This document shows positions 1 through 16,662 of a stretch of DNA of 64,000 bases, one piece after another. The stretch comes from Escherichia coli. Lineage in GTDB: Bacteria > Pseudomonadota > Gammaproteobacteria > Enterobacterales > Enterobacteriaceae. Within the stretch, counting starts at the first letter, position 1, and every line of letters begins with the position of its first letter. The stretch is from assembly GCF_030384885.1 (NCBI RefSeq), contig NZ_CP128613.1, one strand, 5' to 3'. The notes below the pieces were generated by a model. The model ran no database searches, was not told the DNA's origin, and saw only the letters and a program-made list of their open reading frames with translations. Made by a program: the position numbers and the translations under genes.

Positions 1-195
1 TCAATGAGCTACATGAAAGACTTGTGGAGCGAGGAAGAGAAAAAAGAATTCGCTAAACTGGATCAAATGGGCGTGAAAGTCTACAAGGTTGATAAAGCAC
101 CGTTTATCGAGAAAGTGCAGCCGATGTACGCAGCCTTTGCTAAGGAAAACCCTGCTCTCGCCCCAATGCTAACTGATATTCAGGCGACTAAGTAA
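1..195 (+). CDS. 3' fragment of a periplasmic solute-binding protein, TRAP-transporter DctP-like C-terminus; gene starts upstream of the window
   Basis: Frame is open to base 1 (track ORF 4..195 is only the part after an internal Met). C-terminal sequence (GVKVYKVDKAPFIEKVQPMYAAFAKENPALAPMLTDIQATK) resembles TRAP SBP C-termini; followed by a hairpin terminator. Not the gene I expect here in K-12. Confidence 0.4.
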   Translation, partial: SMSYMKDLWSEEEKKEFAKLDQMGVKVYKVDKAPFIEKVQPMYAAFAKENPALAPMLTDIQATK

Positions 196-257
196 TTATC
201 TTAATAGGGCTGCTTATTGTGGCCCTTAGCAATATCTACAAGCGCTCGCTATAAAAG

Positions 258-286
258 CAAAACGCCGACCAATGGTCGGCGTTTTT
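258..286. terminator. Bidirectional intrinsic terminator between the left-edge gene and rplI
   Basis: GC-rich hairpin cgccgacc-aatg-gtcggcg flanked by A-run on one side and TTTTT on the other. Confidence 0.6.
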
Positions 287-306
287 ACGTCTCGTTGAAT
301 AACGAA

Positions 307-768
<462 letters not shown>

Positions 769-797
769 TCAAAGTCGTATTAATGGACCGTGACCGA

Positions 798-1344
<547 letters not shown>

Positions 1345-1350
1345 CAGAAA

Positions 1351-1764
<414 letters not shown>

Positions 1765-2073
1765 TTATTCAGCCTCCTGTCTGGGTCAGCCGAATCCCGG
1801 GGAGGCAAGGAACGTGTTAAAGGTCGGCTGAAAAATGACGCGTTATAGTACTGACATACCCCGCTAAACTCAAGGCCAGCCGACAAATAAATCTCATCTT
1901 TCACCAAATCGTACTAACACGCTGATTTGAAGTTCATCACACTTCATCATGGTGTTTTTTTGAACAACTGCATCAGAAATGGTCACCATCCACTTCTTTA
2001 TCATTGATTAAAATTAAATCAGAAGATCACCACAAGAGGAGAGCACACAAAGTCAGCCGTCGAGGAGGTATCT

Positions 2074-2349
2074 ATGTTCAGCCGTGTTTTAGCCCTTCTG
2101 GCTGTGCTTTTGCTAAGTGCAAATACATGGGCAGCCATTGAAATTAATAACCACCAGGCCAGAAATATGGACGATGTGCAAAGCTTAGGCGTGATTTATA
2201 TCAATCATAATTTCGCCACTGAAAGTGAAGCACGTCAGGCATTAAATGAAGAGACAGATGCGCAGGGCGCAACGTACTACCATGTGATTCTGATGCGGGA
2301 ACCGGGGAGTAACGGCAATATGCACGCCAGCGCGGATATTTATCGCTAG
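2074..2349 (+). CDS. yjfY: DUF1471 (YhcN/BhsA/McbA-like) small secreted protein
   Basis: 91-aa ORF with signal peptide and DUF1471-type C-terminus; RBS GAGGAGG upstream. Confidence 0.9.
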   Translation: MFSRVLALLAVLLLSANTWAAIEINNHQARNMDDVQSLGVIYINHNFATESEARQALNEETDAQGATYYHVILMREPGSNGNMHASADIYR

Positions 2350-2389
2350 CACCAGGTATAACCAACGAAACATTGCCATAGTTTGCTTT

Positions 2390-2414
2390 GCCCCCTTTTC
2401 AGGGGGCTTTTTTT
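2390..2414 (+). terminator. Intrinsic terminator after yjfY
   Basis: Hairpin gccccc-ttttca-gggggc followed by TTTTTTT. Confidence 0.7.
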
Positions 2415-2477
2415 GAAAAACGGCTGCGGACTTAGACCAGTTATCTCCCGAAGAAGGAAATCTCCGCAGCGCGTGTT

Positions 2478-3164
2478 TTACTTCTGCCCGTAATAGGCGT
2501 TGGGACCGTGCTTACGCATGAAGTGTTTATTCATGAGATAGCTGTCGATGTGATTCAGTTGCGGGTTAATGCCGCGGGCAATCCACGCCATTTTCGCCAC
2601 TTCTTCCATCACCACCGCGTTATGCACCGCATCGTGAGCATCTTTCCCCCAGGCGAATGGCCCGTGCTGATACACCACAATTCCCGGCGTATGCAGCGGC
2701 TCGGCGTCACCCAGCGTTTCGATAATCACTTTGCCAGTGTTTAGCTCGTATTCCCCCTGCACTTCTTCTTCGCTTAACCCGCGCGTACACGGGATATCGC
2801 CAAAGAAGTAGTCAGCGTGCGTGGTGCCTAATGCCGGGATCGCCAGCCCCGCCTGCGCCCATGCGGTGGCATGCGTGGAATGGGTATGGACAATGCCGCC
2901 AAGCGACGGATAACGACGGTAGAGTTCAAGATGCGTCGCAGTGTCGGAAGACGGACGATACTCCCCTTCCACCACCTTGCCACTCATATCAACCACCACC
3001 ATATCGTTCGCTTTCATGCTTTCGTAGGCAATGCCGCTGGGCTTGATCACCACCAGCCCGCGTTCGCGGTCAATGGCGCTGACGTTACCCCAGGTAAAGG
3101 TCACCAGCCCGTAGCGCGGCAGATCCATATTGGCTTCAAATACCTGCTGTTTTAGCTTTTGCAT
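2478..3164 (-). CDS. ulaF: L-ribulose-5-phosphate 4-epimerase
   Basis: 228-aa ORF, class II aldolase/epimerase; last gene of ulaABCDEF. Confidence 0.95.
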
Positions 3165-4018
3165 TATGCCGCCTCCACCATGCCGGCTTTAGCCATGCGC
3201 GCTTTCACCCAATCACGCGCTTTCGCCACTTCTGCCGCCGGGTCTTCCGCCGTTTCGCTCCACATCTCAATCAGGTACGGCCCGCAATAACCACTCTGTT
3301 TGAGCGTTTCGAAGCAACGTTCGAAATCCACTACACCTTCGCCAAACGGCACGTTTTTGAAGACGCCTGGTTTAGTGTCTTTCACATGCACCGCAACGAT
3401 GTGCCCGATTCCGGCCTGCAACTCCATCTGCACGTCGTTGTCCCACGCCGACAAGTTGCCGATATCCGGGTAGAGCTGGAACCACGGGTTGTTAAGATAG
3501 TGCGCGTAACCCAGCGCCTTGCTGATGGAGTTCATCAACGGGTAATCCATGATCTCCATTGCCAGCGTCACCTGCGCGCGGCTCGCCATCTCAACGCTCT
3601 CTTTCAGGCCGTCACGGAAACGACGACGCGTTTCGTTATTGGCTTCCTGATAGTAAACGTCGTAGCCCGCCAGTTGGATCACGCGAATACCGACATCCTG
3701 GGCGAACTGGATAGCTTTGCGCATAATCTCCAGCCCCTGCGCCCGCACTGCGTCATCTTCGCTGCCCAGCGGGAAACGGCGATGAGCAGAAAGGCACATG
3801 GACGGCACGCGCACGCCGGTTTCAACAATCGCGTTCACCAGCGCCAGACGCTGCTCGCGGCTCCAGTCAAGGCGCGAGAGGCGATCGTCCGTTTCATCTA
3901 CCGACATCTCGACAAAATCGAAGCCTAACGTTTTTGCCAGTTGCAGCCGTTCCAGCCAGCACTCCCCGGTGGGGAGCGCTTTTTCGTAGATGCCAAGCGG
4001 GATTTGTTTGGACAACAT
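3164..4018 (-). CDS. ulaE: L-ribulose-5-phosphate 3-epimerase
   Basis: 284-aa ORF; start overlaps ulaF region, operon order. Confidence 0.95.
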
Positions 4019-4027
4019 ATCCGCTCC

Positions 4028-4678
4028 TTAGCCCCACAGCTCGGCGATGGAACGTTTGAACTGACGCGCGGCTTCAACCGGAGAAGCGGCATCACGGATA
4101 CTACGCCCCGCGATAAACACATGAATCGGAATGCCTTTGAACAGCGGCAGGTCTTCCAGCGCCAGGCCACCGGTGACGGTGACTTTGAAGCCCATATCGG
4201 AAAGACGTTTGATCGCGGTGATATCCGCTTCGCCCCACGCCACGCCTGCGGCCTGCGCGTCACGGCTGCGGTGATAAACCACCTGCTGGATACCTGCGTC
4301 GCGCCACTGCTGCGCCTGTTCCCAGGTCCAGTAACCGGTCAGTTCGATCTGCACGTCGCCATTAAACTCTTTTGCCACGTCCAGCGCGCCTTTGGCGGTG
4401 TTGATATCTGCACAACAAATCACGGTCACCCAGTCAGCGTTGGCTTCAAAGCACATACGAGAAAGGATTTTGCCCGCATCGGCGATTTTGGCGTCTGCCA
4501 GCACGATTTTGTGCGGATAAAGCGCTTTCAGATCGCGAACCGCACGCACACCTTCGCCCACGCACAGAATGGTGCCCACTTCGATAATGTCGACTTCTTC
4601 GGCAATCAGGCGAGTAGTTTCGTAGGCGCTAGCCATAGTCTGGTTGTCCAGCGCGACTTGCAACATCGGTAATGACAT
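4028..4678 (-). CDS. ulaD: 3-keto-L-gulonate-6-phosphate decarboxylase
   Basis: 216 aa from [12 protein letters not shown]...; track ORF (267 aa) is an upstream in-frame extension into ulaC. Confidence 0.93.
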
Positions 4679-4691
4679 TTTCAATTCCTTC

Positions 4692-5156
4692 TTAAGCAGC
4701 CGCGTTGGTGCGGTCAATGAGATCCAGGACTTCCTGCTCAGTACGGCAGGCGCGTAAACGGTCGAAATTCTCTTCATCTTCAAACAGGTTGACGATCTGC
4801 ATGATGCCCACTTCCTGATGCGTGTTGGCATCGACCGCCGCCATCGTGATGAGGATATCCACCGGGTCGTTATCTTCGTGGTTGAACTCCAGCGGCTTTT
4901 TCAGCGTCACCAGTGCAAAACCGGTTTTCTTAACGCCCTCTTCCGGGCGACCATGCGGCATTGCCAGGCCCGGTGCGAGCACAAAGTACGGGCCGTGTTG
5001 TTCAACCGCATCCAGAATCGCCTGGTAGTAACGCGGCTCTACCACATCTGCCGCCACCAGCAGGTCAACGCCGATTTTCACTGCGTCCTGCCATGTCTCA
5101 ACTTCAGCCTGCAGACGGATAGATTTATTCTCCGCCAGCGAATCACGTAATTTCAT
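4692..5156 (-). CDS. ulaC: Ascorbate-specific PTS enzyme IIA
   Basis: 154-aa ORF. Confidence 0.95.
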
Positions 5157-5165
5157 AGCGCGCCC

Positions 5166-5471
5166 TTACTTCACGTCCTGCGGGAAATGTTCTTTGATCA
5201 CTTCCAGCAGTTTCGGGCCAAAATCGGCAGGAGAGAGCATGTTGCGCACGCCAACCACGTATTTATTGCCGGTCACGGTTATTTCGCCCGCGATGTGCGT
5301 AGAAGCGATGATGATATCCGCGCCGCTCAACTCGCTTTTGTATTCACCAACCGCGCAGCTGTTTACCGTGTGGTCGATGTTCGACTGGGTTAAAAACTGG
5401 TCCACTTTCATTTTCATGATCATGGAACTGCCTTGTCCGTTACCACACACAGCCAGAATACGTACGGTCAT
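5166..5471 (-). CDS. ulaB: Ascorbate-specific PTS enzyme IIB
   Basis: 101 aa from [16 protein letters not shown]...; track ORF has 2 extra N-terminal codons. Confidence 0.93.
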
Positions 5472-5486
5472 AATCAAAACTCCTTA

Positions 5487-7238
<1,752 letters not shown>

Positions 7239-8303
7239 ATGAGTAAAGTGAAAAGTATCACCCGTGAATCCTGGATCCTGAGCACTTTCCCGGAGTGGGG
7301 TAGCTGGTTGAATGAAGAAATTGAACAAGAACAGGTAGCTCCTGGCACATTCGCGATGTGGTGGCTAGGCTGCACCGGGATCTGGCTGAAATCTGAAGGA
7401 GGCACCAACGTTTGCGTCGATTTCTGGTGTGGTACTGGCAAACAAAGTCACGGTAACCCACTAATGAAACAGGGTCACCAGATGCAGCGCATGGCTGGCG
7501 TGAAAAAACTGCAACCGAACCTGCGTACCACCCCATTTGTTCTTGATCCGTTTGCGATTCGCCAGATCGACGCGGTACTGGCAACTCACGATCACAACGA
7601 TCATATCGACGTCAACGTCGCTGCTGCCGTGATGCAGAACTGCGCTGATGACGTGCCATTTATCGGGCCGAAAACCTGCGTGGATTTGTGGATTGGCTGG
7701 GGTGTGCCGAAAGAACGTTGCATCGTGGTCAAACCGGGCGATGTCGTTAAAGTGAAAGACATTGAAATTCATGCCCTTGACGCGTTTGACCGTACTGCAC
7801 TGATCACTTTGCCTGCCGATCAAAAAGCGGCTGGCGTACTGCCAGACGGCATGGACGATCGCGCGGTAAACTACCTGTTCAAAACGCCGGGCGGTACCCT
7901 GTATCACAGTGGCGATTCCCACTACTCTAACTACTATGCGAAGCACGGTAACGAGCATCAGATCGACGTGGCATTAGGTTCATACGGTGAAAACCCACGT
8001 GGTATCACCGACAAAATGACCAGTGCTGATATCCTGCGTATGGCAGAAGCGCTGAATACAAAAGTGGTTATCCCGTTCCACCACGACATCTGGTCAAACT
8101 TCCAGGCCGATCCGCAAGAGATCCGCGTACTGTGGGAGATGAAAAAAGATCGCCTGAAGTATGGCTTCAAGCCGTTTATCTGGCAGGTCGGTGGCAAATT
8201 TACCTGGCCGCTGGATAAAGACAATTTCGAGTACCACTATCCACGTGGTTTTGACGATTGCTTCACCATTGAACCGGATCTGCCGTTCAAGTCGTTCCTG
8301 TAA
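7239..8303 (+). CDS. ulaG: L-ascorbate-6-phosphate lactonase (metallo-beta-lactamase fold)
   Basis: 354 aa from [12 protein letters not shown]...; HxHxDH motif (ATHDHNDH). Confidence 0.95.
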
Positions 8304-8410
8304 TCTGTCGTTTATACCGGATGGCGTGGAGAAGTTCGCGCTATCCGGCGTAGTATTTCCTGGCTATTTCAAATATCATCTAAAAAAATCAAATTTTATC
8401 GGAATAGCTC

Positions 8411-9166
8411 ATGACTGAAGCACAAAGACATCAAATTCTCCTGGAAATGCTCGCACAATTGGGCTTTGTGACCGTTGAGAAAGTCGTTGAGCGTCTGGGA
8501 ATTTCGCCTGCTACCGCTCGACGCGATATCAATAAACTTGACGAAAGCGGCAAACTGAAAAAAGTGCGCAATGGCGCAGAAGCCATTACCCAGCAGCGCC
8601 CACGCTGGACGCCGATGAATCTGCATCAGGCGCAGAACCATGATGAAAAAGTACGTATCGCTAAAGCAGCCTCGCAGCTGGTTAATCCGGGCGAAAGCGT
8701 CGTCATCAACTGCGGTTCCACCGCGTTTCTGCTTGGGCGGGAAATGTGTGGCAAGCCAGTGCAAATCATTACTAATTATCTACCGCTGGCGAATTACCTG
8801 ATCGATCAGGAGCATGACAGCGTGATTATCATGGGCGGCCAATACAACAAAAGCCAGTCCATCACCTTAAGTCCACAGGGCAGCGAAAACAGTCTCTATG
8901 CCGGGCACTGGATGTTTACCAGCGGCAAAGGACTGACCGCAGAAGGGTTGTATAAAACCGATATGCTGACGGCAATGGCAGAGCAGAAGATGTTGAGCGT
9001 GGTAGGGAAACTGGTGGTACTGGTTGATAGCAGTAAGATCGGCGAACGTGCGGGGATGCTCTTTAGTCGTGCAGATCAAATCGATATGCTGATCACCGGC
9101 AAAAATGCTAACCCGGAAATCCTGCAACAACTGGAAGCGCAAGGGGTCAGCATTCTGCGTGTTTAA
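8411..9166 (+). CDS. ulaR: DeoR-family repressor of the ula regulon
   Basis: 251-aa ORF with N-terminal HTH and sugar-phosphate-binding domain. Confidence 0.95.
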
Positions 9167-9912
9167 AGATGCTGCTGGAAAAATGTCACGGCAGCATCTA
9201 ATGCCTCAGGCGTAATGCGGTGACGCACGCCTGGCTGCCATGAACAGGTTAGCAGTTTATCCCGTCCCGTCTCGATTAAGGCCTGCTGCAAACGTAGTGA
9301 TTCGTCGGCAGGCACGACGTCATCGTCAAGGCCATGCCACAGCAGTAGAGGTCTGTCACCAAGTTGTTCCAGATGGTTTGTCGCTTCCCACTCTGCCAGC
9401 GGCGCGACAATGTTATTGAATTCATTCTGCTGTGCTGCCGTTTCAGGTATCAGCGGTGGAAACAGTGAACGGGCGAGCGATGTAAAATAGCCCGATCCCA
9501 TCATGCTGGCGGTACATTTCACCGTGGGGTGGCGAGCGGTAATTCCCAGTGCCGTCATCGCGCCCATCGACGCGCCACCGACTGCCAGACGGTCAGCAAG
9601 CAGCCAGTTTTCTTCGGCTATTGCCGCACGTAAGGTAGTGAATTCCTGCATACTTTGTAGCAAAATTTGCCAAAATTGATATAACCGCCGCGCTGCGTCG
9701 CCCCTAAAACGGCTACCGTGATCGGGCGCATCCGGCATGATCACCCGCAAACCAGCCTGCGCCAGCGCAACGGCAAAATAGCTATACACCAGACTGGACG
9801 AAGTAAAGCCGTGATAAAAAATCACGCACGGTAACGGGGTATCTTTTTGCCCGACAGGATAAGCATGAAGAACGGGAATATCTGCCAGCACGCGCGAGTC
9901 TATTTCAATCAT
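9163..9912 (-). CDS. yjfP: Alpha/beta-hydrolase esterase
   Basis: 249-aa ORF; GGASMG nucleophile-elbow-like motif; convergent with ulaR, 4-nt overlap. Confidence 0.9.
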
Positions 9913-10093
9913 CTGTCTCTCCTTTTTGTCTGGTATGACATGAAGAAATCCTTAGCACAAGTTTCTGCTGGCGGTATTAGTTCATAATGTTGAGATGTGG
10001 GTTACGCTTTCGTCACGTTTTCATTCGAAAATCGCGTACCAGGTAACAATTCGGGAACATTCCCCCAAAGTTAAATTAATAAGGCACTACACT

Positions 10094-10423
10094 ATGGTTA
10101 GCAGGAAACGTAATAGCGTTATTTACCGGTTTGCCAGTTTATTATTGGTGTTGATGTTAAGTGCCTGTAGCGCACTGCAAGGTACGCCACAGCCAGCACC
10201 GCCAGTAACGGACCATCCGCAAGAGATTCGCCGCGACCAGACGCAAGGGTTACAGCGAATAGGTAGCGTAAGCACGATGGTTCGGGGTTCTCCGGATGAC
10301 GCATTAGCAGAAATCAGAGCGAAAGCTGTCGCTGCAAAAGCTGATTATTACGTTGTCGTCATGGTGGACGAAACCATCGTGACAGGACAGTGGTATTCAC
10401 AAGCTATTTTATACCGTAAATAA
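10094..10423 (+). CDS. bsmA: Biofilm/stress lipoprotein, DUF1471 family
   Basis: 109 aa from MVSRKRNSVIYRF...; lipobox LSAC; track ORF has a 33-codon upstream extension. Confidence 0.88.
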   Translation: MVSRKRNSVIYRFASLLLVLMLSACSALQGTPQPAPPVTDHPQEIRRDQTQGLQRIGSVSTMVRGSPDDALAEIRAKAVAAKADYYVVVMVDETIVTGQWYSQAILYRK

Positions 10424-10571
10424 ATCAGACAACTTATACAGCCAGCTTTACATTGCTTTGCGTCCCTATGCGTTTACCTGTGCACAATAAATTACCAGCT
10501 GGAAGCTCGGGCGTTTATTACCGCGATGGAATGCCCTGCAACATGTGGGGAAACGAAAAATGGAGCTGATG

Positions 10572-10847
10572 ATGAAACAATTACTTGCCTCACCCTCACT
10601 GCAATTAGTGACTTATCCTGCGAGCACCACGGCACAGTCTGCAGAATTCGCCAGTGCTGACTGCGTGACGGGCCTGAATGAAATAGGTCAGATCTCGGTT
10701 AGCAATATTTCAGGGGATCCGCAGGACGTGGAACGTATCGTGGCGTTAAAGGCCGATGAACAAGGTGCGTCATGGTACCGCATTATTACCATGTATGAAG
10801 ACCAGCAGCCTGATAACTGGCGTGTACAGGCGATACTGTATGCGTGA
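10572..10847 (+). CDS. yjfN: DUF1471 family small periplasmic protein
   Basis: 91 aa from MKQLLASPSLQL...; alternative upstream starts exist in frame (track ORF from 10545). Confidence 0.85.
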   Translation: MKQLLASPSLQLVTYPASTTAQSAEFASADCVTGLNEIGQISVSNISGDPQDVERIVALKADEQGASWYRIITMYEDQQPDNWRVQAILYA

Positions 10848-10849
10848 GT

Positions 10850-10905
10850 GTCATCCGCAGCAAATGAACAATGCCGGATGCGACACCTGTGCCTTATCCG
10901 GCCAA
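10850..10905. repeat. REP (repetitive extragenic palindromic) element
   Basis: gccggatgcgacac...gccttatccggcc imperfect palindrome, typical enterobacterial REP; between convergent yjfN and aidB. Confidence 0.6.
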
Positions 10906-10996
10906 CAGTTCCTGAAATTTCATTGTGTTAGTTGATAACACGTAATGCTGCTGTTGCCATTATAAGACGCGCTAGCATCACATCTGGCTGACTCGT

Positions 10997-12622
10997 TTAT
11001 AAACATACTCCCCCCGTCGCCCGCAGCAATAAATCATTCTGGATCTGCTCTGACAACCGCACGCCGCCGCGCGTATCAAACATCATCTGACACCACGCCT
11101 GCGCCATTGGCGGAGAGGCATATTTCAACATTTGCGCGCCGCAACCCAGCAGGAATAGCTGACGAGTAATCTCTCGCCCCATTTCTTCAGCTGGCTTACG
11201 CAGTTGCTGCTGCAAACGACGAACCGCGCGATCAAAATAGCGATCCTGCCCTTTCACTTCCATAAACGCTTCCGACAGTAAGTCGTATACACCCGCCTGC
11301 TTATTAAGAACGCGCAATACATCCAGGCACATAATATTGCCAGAACCTTCCCAGATGCTGTTCACCGGCATTTCCCTGTAAAGCCGCGGCAGCTCGCTCT
11401 CCTCGCAATAACCAATACCGCCCAGCACCTCCATCGCTTCGGCCACAAACGGCATACCACGTTTGCAGATAACCAATTTCGCCGCAGGCGTAAATAAACG
11501 CGCCCACAGGGCTTCTTTGGCATCGGCACGCCGGTCCCACGCTCGCGCAAGACGAAACAGCAACGCCGTTTGACCTTCAAGCTGAAGTGCCATGCGACTT
11601 AAGACATGACGCATAAGGGGTTGTTGGATCAATGGATTACCAAAAACATGGCGTTGATGGGCATGATAAATCGCCAGCGAAAATGCACGGCGCATCATGG
11701 CATGGCTACCCAGGGCGCAATCAAAACGCGTCATCCCACCCATTTTCAGGATCAGACGAACTCCTTCCCCTTCCTGCCCCAACAACCAGCCAATGGCATC
11801 CTGAAACTCCACTTCGCCGCTGGCGTTAGAGCGATTACCCAGCTTATCTTTCAGCCGCTCGAGGCGAATCGCGTTGCGTTGCCCGTCAGGCAAAAAGCGC
11901 GGCACAAAAAAGCAGGACAAACCGCCAGTGGTCTGCGCCAGTACCAGATGCGCATCGCTTTGTGGCACCGAGAAAAACCATTTATGCCCCACCAGCCGAT
12001 AAGAGCCATCGTCCAGACGCTCTGCGCGGGTAGTGTTGCTCATCACATCGGAACCGCCCTGCTTTTCCGTCATGCCCATGCCAATCAACAAACCGCGTTT
12101 TTGCCCACCTGGCAATAAGTGGGAATCGTAGCGATCGCTCAACAGCGGCGTGGTCCAGTCCTGAAACGGCGCGGGTAACATCTGTAACAGCAATGGCGTG
12201 GCGGCAAAGGTCATGGTTATCGGACATAACGACCCTGCCTCAACCTGTGCGTGCAACATAAAACGCGCCGCTCGCGCCACAAATGCGCCGGAGCGAGCGT
12301 CTTCTTCCCAGGCCAGATTGTGTACCCGATTGGTACATAACGCCTGCATCAGCAGGTGCCAGGCGGGGTGAAAACGCACATCGTCCAGACGGCGTCCTTG
12401 CGCATCGTAGCGCAATAATTCGGGCGGATTCACATTCGCCAGTCGCCCCAGTTCAAGGGATTCAGCCGTTCCTAACTGCTGACCAATACTGGCGAGAAAA
12501 TCGCTATCCCAGCCAGCACCTTCACGCGTTACCGCTTCGCAGAGCGCGCCATCAGACAGGTATAAGTTGCTGTTATTTAATGGTATAGGTTGATTAAAAA
12601 CGGTGTGAGTTTGCCAGTGCAC
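10997..12622 (-). CDS. aidB: Acyl-CoA dehydrogenase-family adaptive-response protein AidB
   Basis: 541 aa beginning at GTG (..VHWQTHTVFNQP); track ORF starts 6 codons further upstream. Confidence 0.93.
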   Translation of the reverse strand: MHWQTHTVFNQPIPLNNSNLYLSDGALCEAVTREGAGWDSDFLASIGQQLGTAESLELGRLANVNPPELLRYDAQGRRLDDVRFHPAWHLLMQALCTNRVHNLAWEEDARSGAFVARAARFMLHAQVEAGSLCPITMTFAATPLLLQMLPAPFQDWTTPLLSDRYDSHLLPGGQKRGLLIGMGMTEKQGGSDVMSNTTRAERLDDGSYRLVGHKWFFSVPQSDAHLVLAQTTGGLSCFFVPRFLPDGQRNAIRLERLKDKLGNRSNASGEVEFQDAIGWLLGQEGEGVRLILKMGGMTRFDCALGSHAMMRRAFSLAIYHAHQRHVFGNPLIQQPLMRHVLSRMALQLEGQTALLFRLARAWDRRADAKEALWARLFTPAAKLVICKRGMPFVAEAMEVLGGIGYCEESELPRLYREMPVNSIWEGSGNIMCLDVLRVLNKQAGVYDLLSEAFMEVKGQDRYFDRAVRRLQQQLRKPAEEMGREITRQLFLLGCGAQMLKYASPPMAQAWCQMMFDTRGGVRLSEQIQNDLLLRATGGVCL

Positions 12623-12705
12623 TGTGTCTCCCTCCATCAATGGCAGTCACCATTAGTATGGTCACTGCCACGGATTCCTGACAGAAAGAGATTGCTAAAA
12701 CATTC

Positions 12706-13869
12706 TTAGCCAGCAATATAATGCGGAACGAAACGTGAGGTGTCTTTGGTGATCAGCGTGTTATCTTCACGGATCCCCATTCCGCACGCTTCATCATCGA
12801 CAATCCAGCTACCAATGAGTGTGTAGCTATCGCCAAACCGTGGTAGAGGTTGAAATGCCTGGTAGATCATCGGTTCATCGGCGTAATCACCCTCAGCGTG
12901 GTCAACGACGTTATTCTGACCATCGAAAATGGTGACGTTACCGCCCTCGCGTGAGTAGATCGGTTTACGCACATAGCTTTCGCCAGCGGCAATCTGCGGT
13001 TTTTCGCCATCAAACCAGGATGCAAGTAGGTTAGGATGACCAGGAAAGAAGCGCCAAAGCAGCGGCATTAACCCTTTGTTGCTCAAGATACTTTTCCATA
13101 ACGGCTCCACCCATTGCTCGCGGCGCTTGCGCAGCAGCGGACCGTTATCGTCACGCATCATCCATTCCAGCGGATACAGCTTAAATGCACGCTGGATGAC
13201 ATTATCATCAAGATCGGTCAGTACACCGCCGACGCCCAAACCGAGATCTTCAATGTAGATAAACCGTGACTCCTGCCCAGCCTGCTGAGCGCAGTCCTGC
13301 AAGTACAGCACAGTACTCCTGTCTTCGTCGGTATCCTGACAACAGCAGAAATAAAACGGTTCCCGACTGTAAAGCTCGCTAAAACGCGAAATCAGGCGTT
13401 CCTGAATGGCATTGTACTGATCGGCATCACGCGGAATAATGCCGCTACGCCGCGCATCTTCCAGCCACAGCCACTGGAAATAAGCCGATTCATACAACGA
13501 GGTTGGCGTATCGGCGTTGTACTCCAGCAGCTTCACCGGCGCATTGCCACACCAGGCAAAATCCATCCGACCATACAGCGAAGGATCGCGTGCGCGCCAG
13601 CTTTCAGCGATCACATCCCAGTACAGCGGTGGGATCGCCAGTTGCGTCAGGATCTCTTCGTCTTGAACCGCACGATCCACCACCTCAAGGCACATCTGAT
13701 GCAGTTCCGCAGTTGGTTTTTCGATCTGCTCTTCTATCTGACGCAGAGTAAAGCGGTAAGCCCGACTCTCATCCCAATAGATTTCATTGTCGATGATATG
13801 AAAGTCGAAACCGTTGTCGGCGGCGATCTGGTCCAGATCCCGTCGTACAGGAACGTTGTGTCTCAGCAT
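12706..13869 (-). CDS. yjfC: Glutathionylspermidine synthase-family (ATP-grasp) protein
   Basis: 387-aa ORF; last gene of yjfKLMC. Confidence 0.9.
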   Translation of the reverse strand: MLRHNVPVRRDLDQIAADNGFDFHIIDNEIYWDESRAYRFTLRQIEEQIEKPTAELHQMCLEVVDRAVQDEEILTQLAIPPLYWDVIAESWRARDPSLYGRMDFAWCGNAPVKLLEYNADTPTSLYESAYFQWLWLEDARRSGIIPRDADQYNAIQERLISRFSELYSREPFYFCCCQDTDEDRSTVLYLQDCAQQAGQESRFIYIEDLGLGVGGVLTDLDDNVIQRAFKLYPLEWMMRDDNGPLLRKRREQWVEPLWKSILSNKGLMPLLWRFFPGHPNLLASWFDGEKPQIAAGESYVRKPIYSREGGNVTIFDGQNNVVDHAEGDYADEPMIYQAFQPLPRFGDSYTLIGSWIVDDEACGMGIREDNTLITKDTSRFVPHYIAG

Positions 13870-13871
13870 GA

Positions 13872-14510
13872 TTAGCCTCCCCAGTGCCCACGGGCGCTGG
13901 AAGAACGACCATAGCCGCCGCGAGAAACAGTTGACGCTTTTCTGGTGGTAAAGCCGCCCGAGGAGTAAGACTCTTTTTTGCCAGAACCGGAGCGCCAGGA
14001 GTAATCACCGGAAGTATTGCGCCAGACGGGGCGGGAAGCAAATGAGGATCCACCGCTGTTATAAACGAACGGCTCATCGCGATCTTTACGAATAACCCGG
14101 CTTAATAAAAATCCAGAAATGACCGGGATCCAACTCTGTTCAACATTGTCGTAGTAGCAATTTTCGTACTTAGACTGACAATTCTGCTGAGTCATATTCT
14201 TCGGAACATCGGCATAAAATGCCGCTTTGGCATTGTTCCAGCCATGAGCACAGATATCTGAATTATTACCGTCATCAATACAATCCTGCACTGTCGAGTA
14301 AAACGTTCCGTCACCGTCGTTATCGACATCACCACTATCGCCACAACCTTTCAATACAAAAAAAGCTGCACCGCCCATTAGCGCCAACGTTAAGTATTTT
14401 TGTGCGTAGCGATTGCGTCGCGGCTCAAAAGGATTATTAGGTCTTCCAATGCGACTGATCGCTCCGTGACCAATTTTACTGTTATTTCTTGATTTGCGTT
14501 TTCTGGCCAT
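13872..14510 (-). CDS. yjfM: DUF1190 protein with Gly/Ser-rich C-terminal tail
   Basis: 212-aa ORF. Confidence 0.88.
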   Translation of the reverse strand: MARKRKSRNNSKIGHGAISRIGRPNNPFEPRRNRYAQKYLTLALMGGAAFFVLKGCGDSGDVDNDGDGTFYSTVQDCIDDGNNSDICAHGWNNAKAAFYADVPKNMTQQNCQSKYENCYYDNVEQSWIPVISGFLLSRVIRKDRDEPFVYNSGGSSFASRPVWRNTSGDYSWRSGSGKKESYSSGGFTTRKASTVSRGGYGRSSSARGHWGG

Positions 14511-14519
14511 GATCGTCCA

Positions 14520-14918
14520 TTACCATGTCATACAAGCTGCGTTAAAAATACCGCCAGCCAGCGCGGCGGTTCCCATAAACATTCCTGCTGCGGTATTGTG
14601 ATTAATAATTTTTTCGCTTAATGCTGGCATATAAAGTCTGACGCCAGCAAAAACGAGTAACTGAATCACCAGTGCGATCCCGCCCCAGGCAAAATAATCC
14701 GGAATACTCACCGCATTGATTGCCGCACTAGATAATGGGATCACGTAACCCAACAATGTACCACTGAACGCCAGTGCCGCCGCGGTATTATTGTTTTTAA
14801 TTAACTGCCATTCGTTGTGTGGTGTAATTTTGGAGTAGATAAACAGAAAAATAATCACCATAGCCACGCCAATAAAAAAATAGGCGCTAAAGGCAAGAAG
14901 TGAATCCAGTATATGCAT
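14520..14918 (-). CDS. yjfL: DUF350 inner-membrane protein
   Basis: 132-aa hydrophobic ORF. Confidence 0.88.
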   Translation of the reverse strand: MHILDSLLAFSAYFFIGVAMVIIFLFIYSKITPHNEWQLIKNNNTAAALAFSGTLLGYVIPLSSAAINAVSIPDYFAWGGIALVIQLLVFAGVRLYMPALSEKIINHNTAAGMFMGTAALAGGIFNAACMTW

Positions 14919-14935
14919 CGTAAACGTCCTTGTAA

Positions 14936-15595
14936 TTAACCAATAATATGAAGTGATGTCAGTGGGATATCAACACCCAGTGCGCGCGAAAATAACCACT
15001 CCGGCTCGCCGAGATCGTTAAAAGATTCCTCACCATTTAACAGCAAATATTCACAGGTATCTTCGGTCACCTGCCGTTCATAGCCCATGGTAAAATTATG
15101 CACTTCCCATTTGGCGTGGTTTTGATTTTCAACTTTTTCCAGCATATAGACGGGTTCGATATTTCCCGGTTCTTCACTGTTAAAAAATCGCTGCCAGCGT
15201 TTTTCCTGCCAGTTTAATGTCATTGCCCCCATCGCTTTGGCGTTGATCGCTTCGCGCCAGTGGCTCTCTTTGCTGATACCGTAGCTCTCTTCATAGACAA
15301 AGAGCTTTATATCATCAATGTCATCAATATCTTCGCCGCCGGTGGTATTGATTTGCAGAAATTCATCGCCCGAAGTGTAGTAGCGGAAAATCTGACTACC
15401 GCCGCCCAGATCGATGTGGCTGACAGCGGCTACCGTAAATTCTTCACCCGGCAGCGCAATCAGCAATTCATCTTCCAGCAAACGAAACGCTAACGTGTCG
15501 AGCGTAAAGCCGCTATTGAGATGAAGTCCCAGTGGGCCACGTGCGATTGCAGGTTTATCATCCTTACCAAACAGACGCTTGAAAAAACTTGTCAT
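14936..15595 (-). CDS. yjfK: DUF2491 protein
   Basis: 219-aa ORF; start codon overlaps stop of the upstream RCK-like ORF (ATGA). Confidence 0.9.
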   Translation of the reverse strand: MTSFFKRLFGKDDKPAIARGPLGLHLNSGFTLDTLAFRLLEDELLIALPGEEFTVAAVSHIDLGGGSQIFRYYTSGDEFLQINTTGGEDIDDIDDIKLFVYEESYGISKESHWREAINAKAMGAMTLNWQEKRWQRFFNSEEPGNIEPVYMLEKVENQNHAKWEVHNFTMGYERQVTEDTCEYLLLNGEESFNDLGEPEWLFSRALGVDIPLTSLHIIG

Positions 15596-16347
15596 ATGCT
15601 TCCCTCAATGTCCTGCCATGCCACTTCTTCAGCCAAAATACGGTTATTGCCAATAAGATGCAGCCACATACCGCCTTTAACTTCCGTTGCAATGACTGGA
15701 TTCAGTTCCATTCCCCTACCATTTTTACAACTGCTTATTCCCAGGACGGTGGCATCATGATGAAGTTTCATATAATGCATCAATGCGCCATAACGCATTG
15801 AGGTAACCCGTTCAGGAATCGGTAAAACAAACCCCGTATCCCCCAGCATTGGATTCATAATCGATGCCACTGATTGAGATGAACCGGGATCTTGTATTGA
15901 ACGGGAAAGTTGTTCTGCTGAAATATTTCGCACTATTTCAATACGTTGACAATGAACCTCTAATAAACGAGCGTAGCGTTCATCTTCCAGATAAGCGACG
16001 ATATGGCATCTTTCAGGAATAAAATCCGCCAGGGATAGTGCGGTCGTGAACGTCTGCTCATCTGTTTGCGAAAAGATGATGACACTTTGGCAATTTGCCA
16101 GTCCCATGCGGGTATGTTCATGCGGATCATTAAAATTACTAATACGAATGAAATCGACCCAATTATTTCCAGGCATCGGATGTTGAATATCATCCCGCTC
16201 ACACAAAAGTACCCGGCCAAATGCTCTTCGGGAATCAAACAACAATAATGAAATCATCTTTTCAGTCTGATGCCCGCGCCATCCAATGACCAGCATATGG
16301 TTGCGCAAATTGCTGTAGTCGCCCATTCCCGTCATTCCTTTCGCCAA
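15592..16347 (-). CDS. RCK/TrkA-N-like cytoplasmic regulatory domain protein, apparent C-terminal half of a Kch/MthK-type K+ channel; start ambiguous (TTG at 16347, ATG at 16335 or 16326)
   Basis: N-terminus HMLVIGWRGHQTEKMISLL fits the Rossmann beta1-Gly-loop-alphaA pattern of RCK/CASTOR-type domains; ORF is in the same frame as the pore ORF, 2 codons after its TAA. AAGGA lies 9 nt before the ATG at 16326. Not a gene I recall from K-12. Confidence 0.55.
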   Translation of the reverse strand: MAKGMTGMGDYSNLRNHMLVIGWRGHQTEKMISLLLFDSRRAFGRVLLCERDDIQHPMPGNNWVDFIRISNFNDPHEHTRMGLANCQSVIIFSQTDEQTFTTALSLADFIPERCHIVAYLEDERYARLLEVHCQRIEIVRNISAEQLSRSIQDPGSSQSVASIMNPMLGDTGFVLPIPERVTSMRYGALMHYMKLHHDATVLGISSCKNGRGMELNPVIATEVKGGMWLHLIGNNRILAEEVAWQDIEGSI

Positions 16348-16353
16348 TATGTC

Positions 16354-16662
16354 TTACACTAATGCAATGACTTTTCCCATTAAAGCGCCAAATAAACCAA
16401 CACTCACAGGAATCTGCCAGAGCGCTGTGAACAGACGTCCCCCCACCGTTTGGGGTGTGATATCACCAAACCCCAGCGTTGATCCCACAACCGAGCAGTA
16501 ATAAATAAAATTACTAAGTTGTCCTACCAACGCCTCTTCATGCAACGCAGTTAACACCAGATAACAAAACAGATACTGTCCTGTAAATAATCCAGTCAAT
16601 GCCGGCCAGGTAAGCCTGGAAAGGTGACGTCGGCAGGTTTTAATGATCCATGAGAAGAACAT
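16354..16662 (-). CDS. Two-TM K+-channel-like pore subunit (TM1, pore helix, TLGFGD filter, TM2), apparent N-terminal half of an interrupted channel gene
   Basis: 102-aa ORF: TM1 PALTGLFTGQYLFCYLVLTAL, pore helix and filter NFIYYCSVVGSTLGFGDITP, TM2 GGRLFTALWQIPVSVGLFGALMGKVIALV; ends at TAA directly after TM2. ATG overlaps yjfJ stop by 1 nt. Confidence 0.6.
   Translation of the reverse strand: MFFSWIIKTCRRHLSRLTWPALTGLFTGQYLFCYLVLTALHEEALVGQLSNFIYYCSVVGSTLGFGDITPQTVGGRLFTALWQIPVSVGLFGALMGKVIALV

Follow-up and report, generated by a model that had tools for sequence, protein, structure and literature searches.

The first 195 nucleotides of the window, that is, of the whole 64,000-nucleotide stretch of Escherichia coli DNA analyzed here, are the 3′ end of a gene coding for a DctP-type substrate-binding protein (SBP) of a TRAP transporter. 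It is very likely that the following account, taken as a whole, is correct: the gene is the end of a nine-gene cluster located between ytfB and rplI, the cluster would process a glucuronate-like acid by way of a CoA thioester, it is an old resident of its locus, and the arrangement found in K-12 is a deletion derivative. The junction is an old, conserved locus with at least four common alleles, and its content here is one of them and not a strain-specific oddity. The window edge reflects ordinary strain variation at a polymorphic junction of the core genome; the gene is already annotated and is nothing new. The residual novelty is the uncharacterized enzyme cassette of the cluster together with its TRAP/MFS dimorphism.

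On the plus strand, frame 1 is open from the first base of the window to a TAA stop codon at 193-195. The 64-amino acid fragment that it encodes matches positions 236-285 of the 286 in the Pfam DctP profile (E=0.001, 18.9 bits). This score falls below the gathering score of the family (23.4), so that the fragment taken by itself is just suggestive, and an NCBIfam search with the fragment produced spurious weak matches only. Comparison with the K-12 YjfZ protein by BLASTP gave E=0.45 over 19 residues, i.e., no similarity, and a tblastn search with YjfZ did not find yjfZ anywhere in the window (best E 9.8). The preliminary description had taken the fragment for the C-terminus of a TRAP-type periplasmic solute receptor. 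The match to the C-terminal end of the DctP profile bore this out, as did the full protein, which scores above the family cut-offs. The further claim that the edge gene is not yjfZ, the gene that follows rplI in K-12, agreed with both the K-12 annotation and the BLASTP result.

Positions 1-310 of the window are 100% identical to NZ_CP027579.1, the chromosome of strain 2013C-4282, which is the only record among 5,426 complete E. coli genomes with this exact allele. Over positions 1-15310 the two sequences differ by a single mismatch (position 8225, T in the window and C in the record), and over positions 15592-16662 they share 99.9% identity. These isolated single-base differences (the one at 8225 and at least one within 15592-16662) indicate that the window is nearly identical to NZ_CP027579.1 and not a byte-for-byte copy of it. 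The latter region is occupied by a 356-amino acid "potassium channel family protein" gene (minus strand) located between yjfK and yjfJ, which was found in 18 of the 5,426 complete genomes, in all of them with at least 99% identity, and is much rarer than the TRAP cluster. Strain 2013C-4282 belongs to Escherichia cryptic clade I, is stx1-positive, and has been sequenced completely (PMC10100065). The suggestion that the window comes from a non-K-12 strain was therefore correct, and the TRAP gene end marks it as such. The cryptic clade I origin accounts for the identity of just 90-95% that 5,361 of the 5,425 matching genomes show to the ula region of the window.

The complete SBP from the matching record scored far above the thresholds of the family models: E=2.6e-83 and 280.1 bits (cut-off 23.4) with Pfam DctP (PF03480), and 252.1 (cut-off 50) and 246 (cut-off 175) with the NCBIfam models TRAP_S1 and dctP (TIGR00787 / NF037995). 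Its N-terminus, MKIKVSAGIIGAVLMLSAGQSWA followed by VTLK, was judged by inspection of the translation to combine a basic start with a hydrophobic core and an A-x-A-like site. This predicted Sec-type signal peptide (MKIK...SWA, cut before V) suggests that the SBP should be exported. Residue R166, in the motif K-V-R-V-Q, is invariant in the SBP alignment and aligns with an arginine of all five PDB relatives shown, and the full SBP aligns end to end with solved SBPs. On the profile scores, the arginine, the DctQ and DctM partners, and the predicted export signal, the full protein is a member of the DctP-type TRAP SBPs, an assignment made at the level of sequence.

The gap between ytfB and rplI in NZ_CP027579.1 contains nine genes, all annotated as intact, of which the SBP gene is the last (Table 1). 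Pfam and NCBIfam together assigned every one of the nine. The preliminary description had proposed looking beyond the window for a dctQM-like permease pair, and genes for DctQ and DctM were found directly upstream of the SBP gene. In the annotation of this locus no integrase, tRNA, or IS element was present at the cluster borders, and uxaC, uxuA, and uxuB were not linked to the cluster. For the cluster proteins, public sources give generic family names and none more specific. A search of the PDB with the flavoprotein produced a weak SdhA match only, and the PDB matches of the TIM-barrel enzyme were structural-genomics entries with no stated function, SMc04130 (PDB 3ju2) being a close relative. 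Nothing relevant was found in the open-access literature on the locus, the cassette, SMc04130 (3ju2), or 7VPF.

Table 1. Features of the ytfB-rplI locus. Coordinates preceded by L001 are those of the locus in strain 2013C-4282 (NZ_CP027579.1), where L001 15254 corresponds to window position 254; the others are window positions.
Feature	Coordinates	Strand	Basis or remarks
TetR/AcrR regulator	L001 5433-6080	-	TetR_N + TetR_C_29; divergent
SDR	L001 6292-7083	+	
Xylose-isomerase-like TIM barrel	L001 7093-7935	+	
Enoyl-CoA hydratase	L001 7945-8721	+	
Family-I CoA transferase	L001 8731-10272	+	
SdhA/FrdA/NadB-like FAD_binding_2 oxidoreductase	L001 10269-12350	+	693 aa
DctQ	L001 12371-12847	+	Pfam E=3e-31
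DctM	L001 12870-14171	+	Pfam E=4e-119
Full SBP gene	L001 14224-15195	+	972 nt, 323 aa; WP_000695879.1, annotated TRAP transporter substrate-binding protein
DctP-family TRAP SBP gene, 3′ end	1..195	+	Codons 260-323 + TAA; frame, Pfam, identity to annotated gene
TRAP-allele-specific spacer	196..253	.	Common only to TRAP-type strains, unrelated in MFS-type and K-12-type alleles (alignment)
Spacer common to all alleles	254..306	.	Invariant from 254 onward in five-allele alignment
rplI (ribosomal protein L9), convergent core neighbor	307..756	-	Frame + annotation

Folding of the intergenic region located an 8-bp hairpin at about 206-226, inside the TRAP-specific spacer, and a 12-bp G+C-rich hairpin at 259-285. 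The latter has an A run on one side and a T run on the other, has a fold z-score of -3.7, and was matched by the terminator scan on the minus strand. This hairpin is the rplI terminator, and it probably also terminates the convergent TRAP operon. The product of rplI is 100% identical in strains RM10042 and CFSAN061761, and all the non-K-12 strain tables examined list L9 under one and the same RefSeq protein id. Beyond rplI, the window continues with rpsR, priB, rpsF, and yjfY, and then the ula operon.

The order in K-12 is rplI, then yjfZ (DUF2686), and then the ytfA pseudogene, which overlaps ytfB. The accessory content at this junction, as had been proposed, differs from that of K-12, with the TRAP cluster found there instead of yjfZ. 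Homology between K-12 and 2013C-4282 extends from ytfB through L001 5835 and resumes at L001 15254 (window 254). Since it ends at L001 5835, K-12 ytfA corresponds to the 3′ 402 nt of the TetR gene (L001 5433-5835). A 102-nt remnant of the SDR gene (L001 6381-6482), with 81% identity, lies beside ytfA in K-12. In the coordinates of the K-12 locus (L003), the remnants of the TetR and SDR genes are at 4588-5096 and the yjfZ region is at 3612-4694. The K-12 segment L003 4590-3402 is 97.6% identical to a segment of strain 98203 that includes 102 nt past the stop codon of an MFS transporter gene, then yjfZ, and extends into rplI. This match indicates that the K-12 arrangement is a deletion derivative of an allele with both the MFS gene and yjfZ.

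The distribution of alleles was determined among the 5,426 complete E. coli genomes. In allele A, the one present in the window strain, the TetR gene and the five enzyme genes are accompanied by the three TRAP genes (dctQ, dctM, and dctP); 1,478 genomes (~27%) cover at least 80% of window positions 1-310, and for the 9.4-kb island the same coverage is reached by 1,445. Allele B, found in 1,686 genomes (~31%), has the same TetR and enzyme genes, with a gene for a 425-amino acid ACS-family MFS transporter replacing the TRAP genes. An alignment of MFS-type loci (L004, L005, L016, L021, L022) with TRAP-type loci (L001, L002, L011) placed the switch point between the two in the last codons of the flavoprotein gene, at about L001 12338. 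In allele B′, exemplified by strain 98203, form B is followed by yjfZ before rplI; about 277 genomes carry it, a number estimated from two counts, 3,164 genomes with a match to any part of the island query and 2,539 with yjfZ. Allele C is the K-12 type, consisting of the remnants and yjfZ, and is represented by the rest of the 2,539 genomes (47% of 5,426) with a megablast match to yjfZ. K-12 and about 42% of the complete genomes lack the cluster. Rare variants of the locus with IS1 and IS200-family elements were also seen.

Remnants of dctP do exist. In strain LR-24 only the last 351 nt of the gene are left, adjoining IS1 and a truncated TetR gene, and about 33 genomes have the dctP 3′ end with less than 80% of the island (1478 versus 1445). 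With only 195 nt of dctP inside the window, the fragment might be taken for one of these, a truncated dctP pseudogene left by a deletion and without a working transporter. However, in 2013C-4282 the match is to a 972-nt gene that is annotated as intact, as are all eight partners, with no pseudogene flags, and its product could be aligned over its entire length with SBPs of solved structure. We find it extremely improbable that the fragment is a dead remnant, and treat it as the end of an intact SBP gene.

Comparison with RM10042, an ordinary E. coli strain of the TRAP type, provided a measure of the age of the cluster. Most island genes of 2013C-4282 share 92-96% nucleotide identity with those of RM10042, and the flanking core genes share 93-97% (cycA 95.8%, ytfB 96.7%, ulaF 93.0%). 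Whole-gene nucleotide identity is 83-88% for the FAD oxidoreductase gene and dctQ, and the diverged 3′ part of the former and dctQ both adjoin the breakpoint of the transporter swap. The alignments suggest that mosaic recombination may have taken place in the 3′ end of the flavoprotein gene. When identity to RM10042 was calculated in 500-nt windows, it was 71-86% in L001 11500-13000 (the 3′ part of the flavoprotein gene and dctQ) and 92-97% elsewhere; at the protein level, DctQ is 91% and the flavoprotein 88.6% identical. Within the final ~120 nt of the flavoprotein gene, the window strain is nearer to the MFS type than to the other TRAP allele in roughly the first 40 columns of the alignment.

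Related clusters were found in other genera. In Klebsiella huaxiensis the TRAP version, joined by an additional EamA gene, is likewise found at the fklB-ytfB...rplI-rpsR-priB-rpsF-yjfY-ula locus, and the MFS version is present at the same locus in Salmonella enterica lineages and in K. oxytoca. In another genome the five enzymes and DctQM, with an inverted SBP gene and an added MaoC dehydratase, occur in a different genomic context. The flavoprotein is also encoded in E. albertii, E. marmotae, Shigella, and Citrobacter tructae. SBP orthologs with at least 76% identity were found only in Escherichia, K. huaxiensis, and a few contigs. As for ytfA, its presence has been reported to vary within E. 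coli, and every E. albertii and E. fergusonii examined had it (PMC6790063).

The absence of the cluster from K-12 and from so large a part of the E. coli genomes, the single occurrence of the exact allele, and the yjfZ allele of the nearest relative in the ula region, STN0717-20, would favor a recent horizontally acquired island, specific to a strain or lineage, that inserted beside rplI. Yet most island genes have diverged from RM10042 to the same extent as the flanking core genes and not less, the borders lack mobility-associated features (integrase, tRNA, IS element), Klebsiella and Salmonella have the cluster at this very locus, and K-12 has decayed remnants. Recent horizontal acquisition was rejected on the basis of the divergence and the cross-genus synteny, and we regard it as improbable. 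The same two lines of evidence lead to the preferred interpretation, in which the cluster is an old conserved module at its locus. STN0717-20, whose ula region is the nearest to that of the window (99.3%), has the yjfZ / truncated-TetR allele (L017 12266-13737) and not the TRAP cluster, and therefore the junction is polymorphic even among close relatives. This allele fits an exchange of alleles by homologous recombination at an old locus.

The ligand class of the SBP was approached through its solved relatives. The best of these were 4ovr, 4x8r, 4n15/4n17, 4ln5, 4n8y, 4n91, 4p1l, 4ovq, and 4mij/4mhf, with E values from 1e-71 to 1e-60; in the same search, the sialic acid-binding SiaP scored about 1e-36. 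We take 4ovr, 4x8r, 4ln5, 4n8y, and 4n15 to be glucuronate/galacturonate binders. It has been reported that 4N91 and 4MHF bind D-glucuronate or D-galacturonate and that 4N15 served as a modelling template for STM3169, in which the ligand contacts are N35, Q36, E74, R150, R170, N210, and D237, with Arg170 binding the ligand carboxylate (PMC7660916). The SBP has counterparts at identical spacing (N31, Q32, Q70, R146, R166, N206, and D233), six of the seven being certain; the counterpart of Glu74 is ambiguous, as it could be Q70 or E72, two residues on. The contact positions are invariant between the island-type SBPs and those of Providencia and Vibrio (about 55-60% identical), which sit in UxaC/UxuA/mannitol-dehydrogenase/GH2 glucuronide clusters, and Q32 varies only in three more distant outgroup SBPs, from Gallibacterium, Aeromonas, and Plesiomonas. 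A Glu-to-Gln specificity switch at residue 70 was considered and dropped because Q70 is invariant in the glucuronate-cluster outgroup too.

Beside N206, the island-type SBPs have D-M-AEN-SVM...TTM, as opposed to D-G/A-AEN-N(P/E/I)(T/P)...(T/L/N)(A/S) in the glucuronate-cluster SBPs, and these consistent substitutions raise the possibility that the ligand is not glucuronate itself. The MFS transporter of allele B matches the TIGR00893 D-galactonate transporter family (E=6e-94) and has the IMG name "hexuronate transporter-like". Both importers are thus of hexuronate-type kinship, which points to a hexuronate-like sugar acid as the substrate. To judge from the relatives and contact residues of the SBP, its most likely ligand is D-glucuronate or else a closely analogous cyclic sugar acid. 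A search of genome contigs based on the SBP returned four loci; it was uninformative on the function of the cluster, since three of them are distant TRAP systems without the five enzymes.

Quinate- or shikimate-type acids were among the candidate substrates. Two others were weighed further: C4-dicarboxylates, as in the classical DctPQM, and 2,3-diketo-L-gulonate, which would make the system a second YiaMNO. The former is suggested by the titles of many PDB relatives ("TRAP dicarboxylate transporter, DctP subunit"), but the true C4-dicarboxylate DctP structures (9dsy, 9dtl, and 9ht3) reached only E=1e-28 to 1e-30, versus 1e-71 for the group of uronate binders, and this identity was rejected on the model scores. 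For the latter, the permeases do match the YiaM and YiaN models and the ascorbate (ula) operon is nearby, but the matches are weak, far below the equivalog cut-offs (39.3 bits with a cut-off of 260 for YiaM, and 292 with a cut-off of 800 for YiaN), and the NCBIfam search produced no match of the SBP to the YiaO model. Six of the seven SBP contact residues match those of glucuronate binders with certainty. Either of these substrates is very improbable, and a glucuronate-like acid is the one assumed in what follows.

In the mechanism that we propose, the TetR regulator would keep the operon repressed as long as neither the substrate nor a CoA intermediate is present. The SBP would capture the organic acid in the periplasm through the conserved R166 and hand it to DctQM for ion-driven import. 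Once inside the cell, the acid would be activated as a CoA thioester and would not follow the classical UxaC/UxuAB (Ashwell) route. The crotonase could then dehydrate or hydrate the CoA-bound acid, the SDR oxidize it, and the TIM-barrel enzyme isomerize or epimerize it, while the SdhA-like flavoprotein might reduce or oxidize a C-C bond. The gene families allow the tentative proposal, which we consider possible but rather doubtful, that the five-enzyme cassette provides Enterobacteriaceae with a CoA-thioester route, not described before, for a cyclic sugar acid resembling glucuronate, with an interchangeable importer (high-affinity TRAP or ACS-family MFS). We know of no precedent in hexuronate catabolism for a set composed of a CoA transferase, a crotonase, and an SdhA-like flavoprotein.

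These results give a meaning to the K-12 junction, in which the ytfA pseudogene and yjfZ mark a decayed catabolic operon that is kept intact in most other Enterobacteriaceae lineages examined. The presence of two alternative importers on one operon constitutes a natural experiment for TRAP versus MFS uptake. There is also a practical side, as yjfZ was proposed in 2024 for the monitoring of water by qPCR, as a signature gene conserved in E. coli/Shigella (PMC11057252). The marker matches only about 47% of complete genomes, and strains like that of the window would be missed.

The locus can be compared with four known systems. The yjfZ/ytfA junction of K-12 has the same position between ytfB and rplI and the same right breakpoint (window 253/254), but YjfZ is unrelated to the SBP, and just the TetR and SDR remnants were kept. 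YiaMNO is, to our knowledge, the sole TRAP transporter of E. coli K-12, and its substrate is 2,3-diketo-L-gulonate. It belongs to the same transporter class, has the same three-subunit layout, and is found in the same species. However, it is encoded at a different chromosomal locus and is not an ortholog of the cluster TRAP system; orthology was rejected because of the low YiaM and YiaN scores and the absence of a YiaO match.

The D-glucuronate/D-galacturonate SBPs (STM3169 of Salmonella; Apre_1383, which is 4N91; Bpro_3107, which is 4MHF; and Bamb_6123, which is 4N15) resemble the SBP in DctP fold family and in the spacing of the contacts, the carboxylate-binding arginines included, and they are the best-scoring relatives. 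The SBP described here is likewise partnered with DctQ and DctM. Unlike those systems, the cluster is linked to a CoA transferase/crotonase/SDR/TIM-barrel/flavoprotein cassette and has no uxaC/uxuAB or glucuronidase genes. The identity to the nearest uronate-cluster SBPs is moderate (about 55-60%), and the block of substitutions beside N206 sets the island-type proteins apart. By analogy, the enzymatic part of the cluster may be closest to the Cai (carnitine) pathway. We presume that the latter differs from the cluster in its CoA transferase (type III there and type I here), in its reductase (an acyl-CoA dehydrogenase fold there and an SdhA-like flavoprotein here), and in substrate class and transporter type. 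What the two would have in common, again on our understanding of the Cai pathway, is the combination of a transporter, a CoA transferase, a (de)hydratase of the crotonase family, and an enoyl-CoA reductase that depends on flavin, with the CoA thioester of a hydroxylated carboxylate as the substrate.
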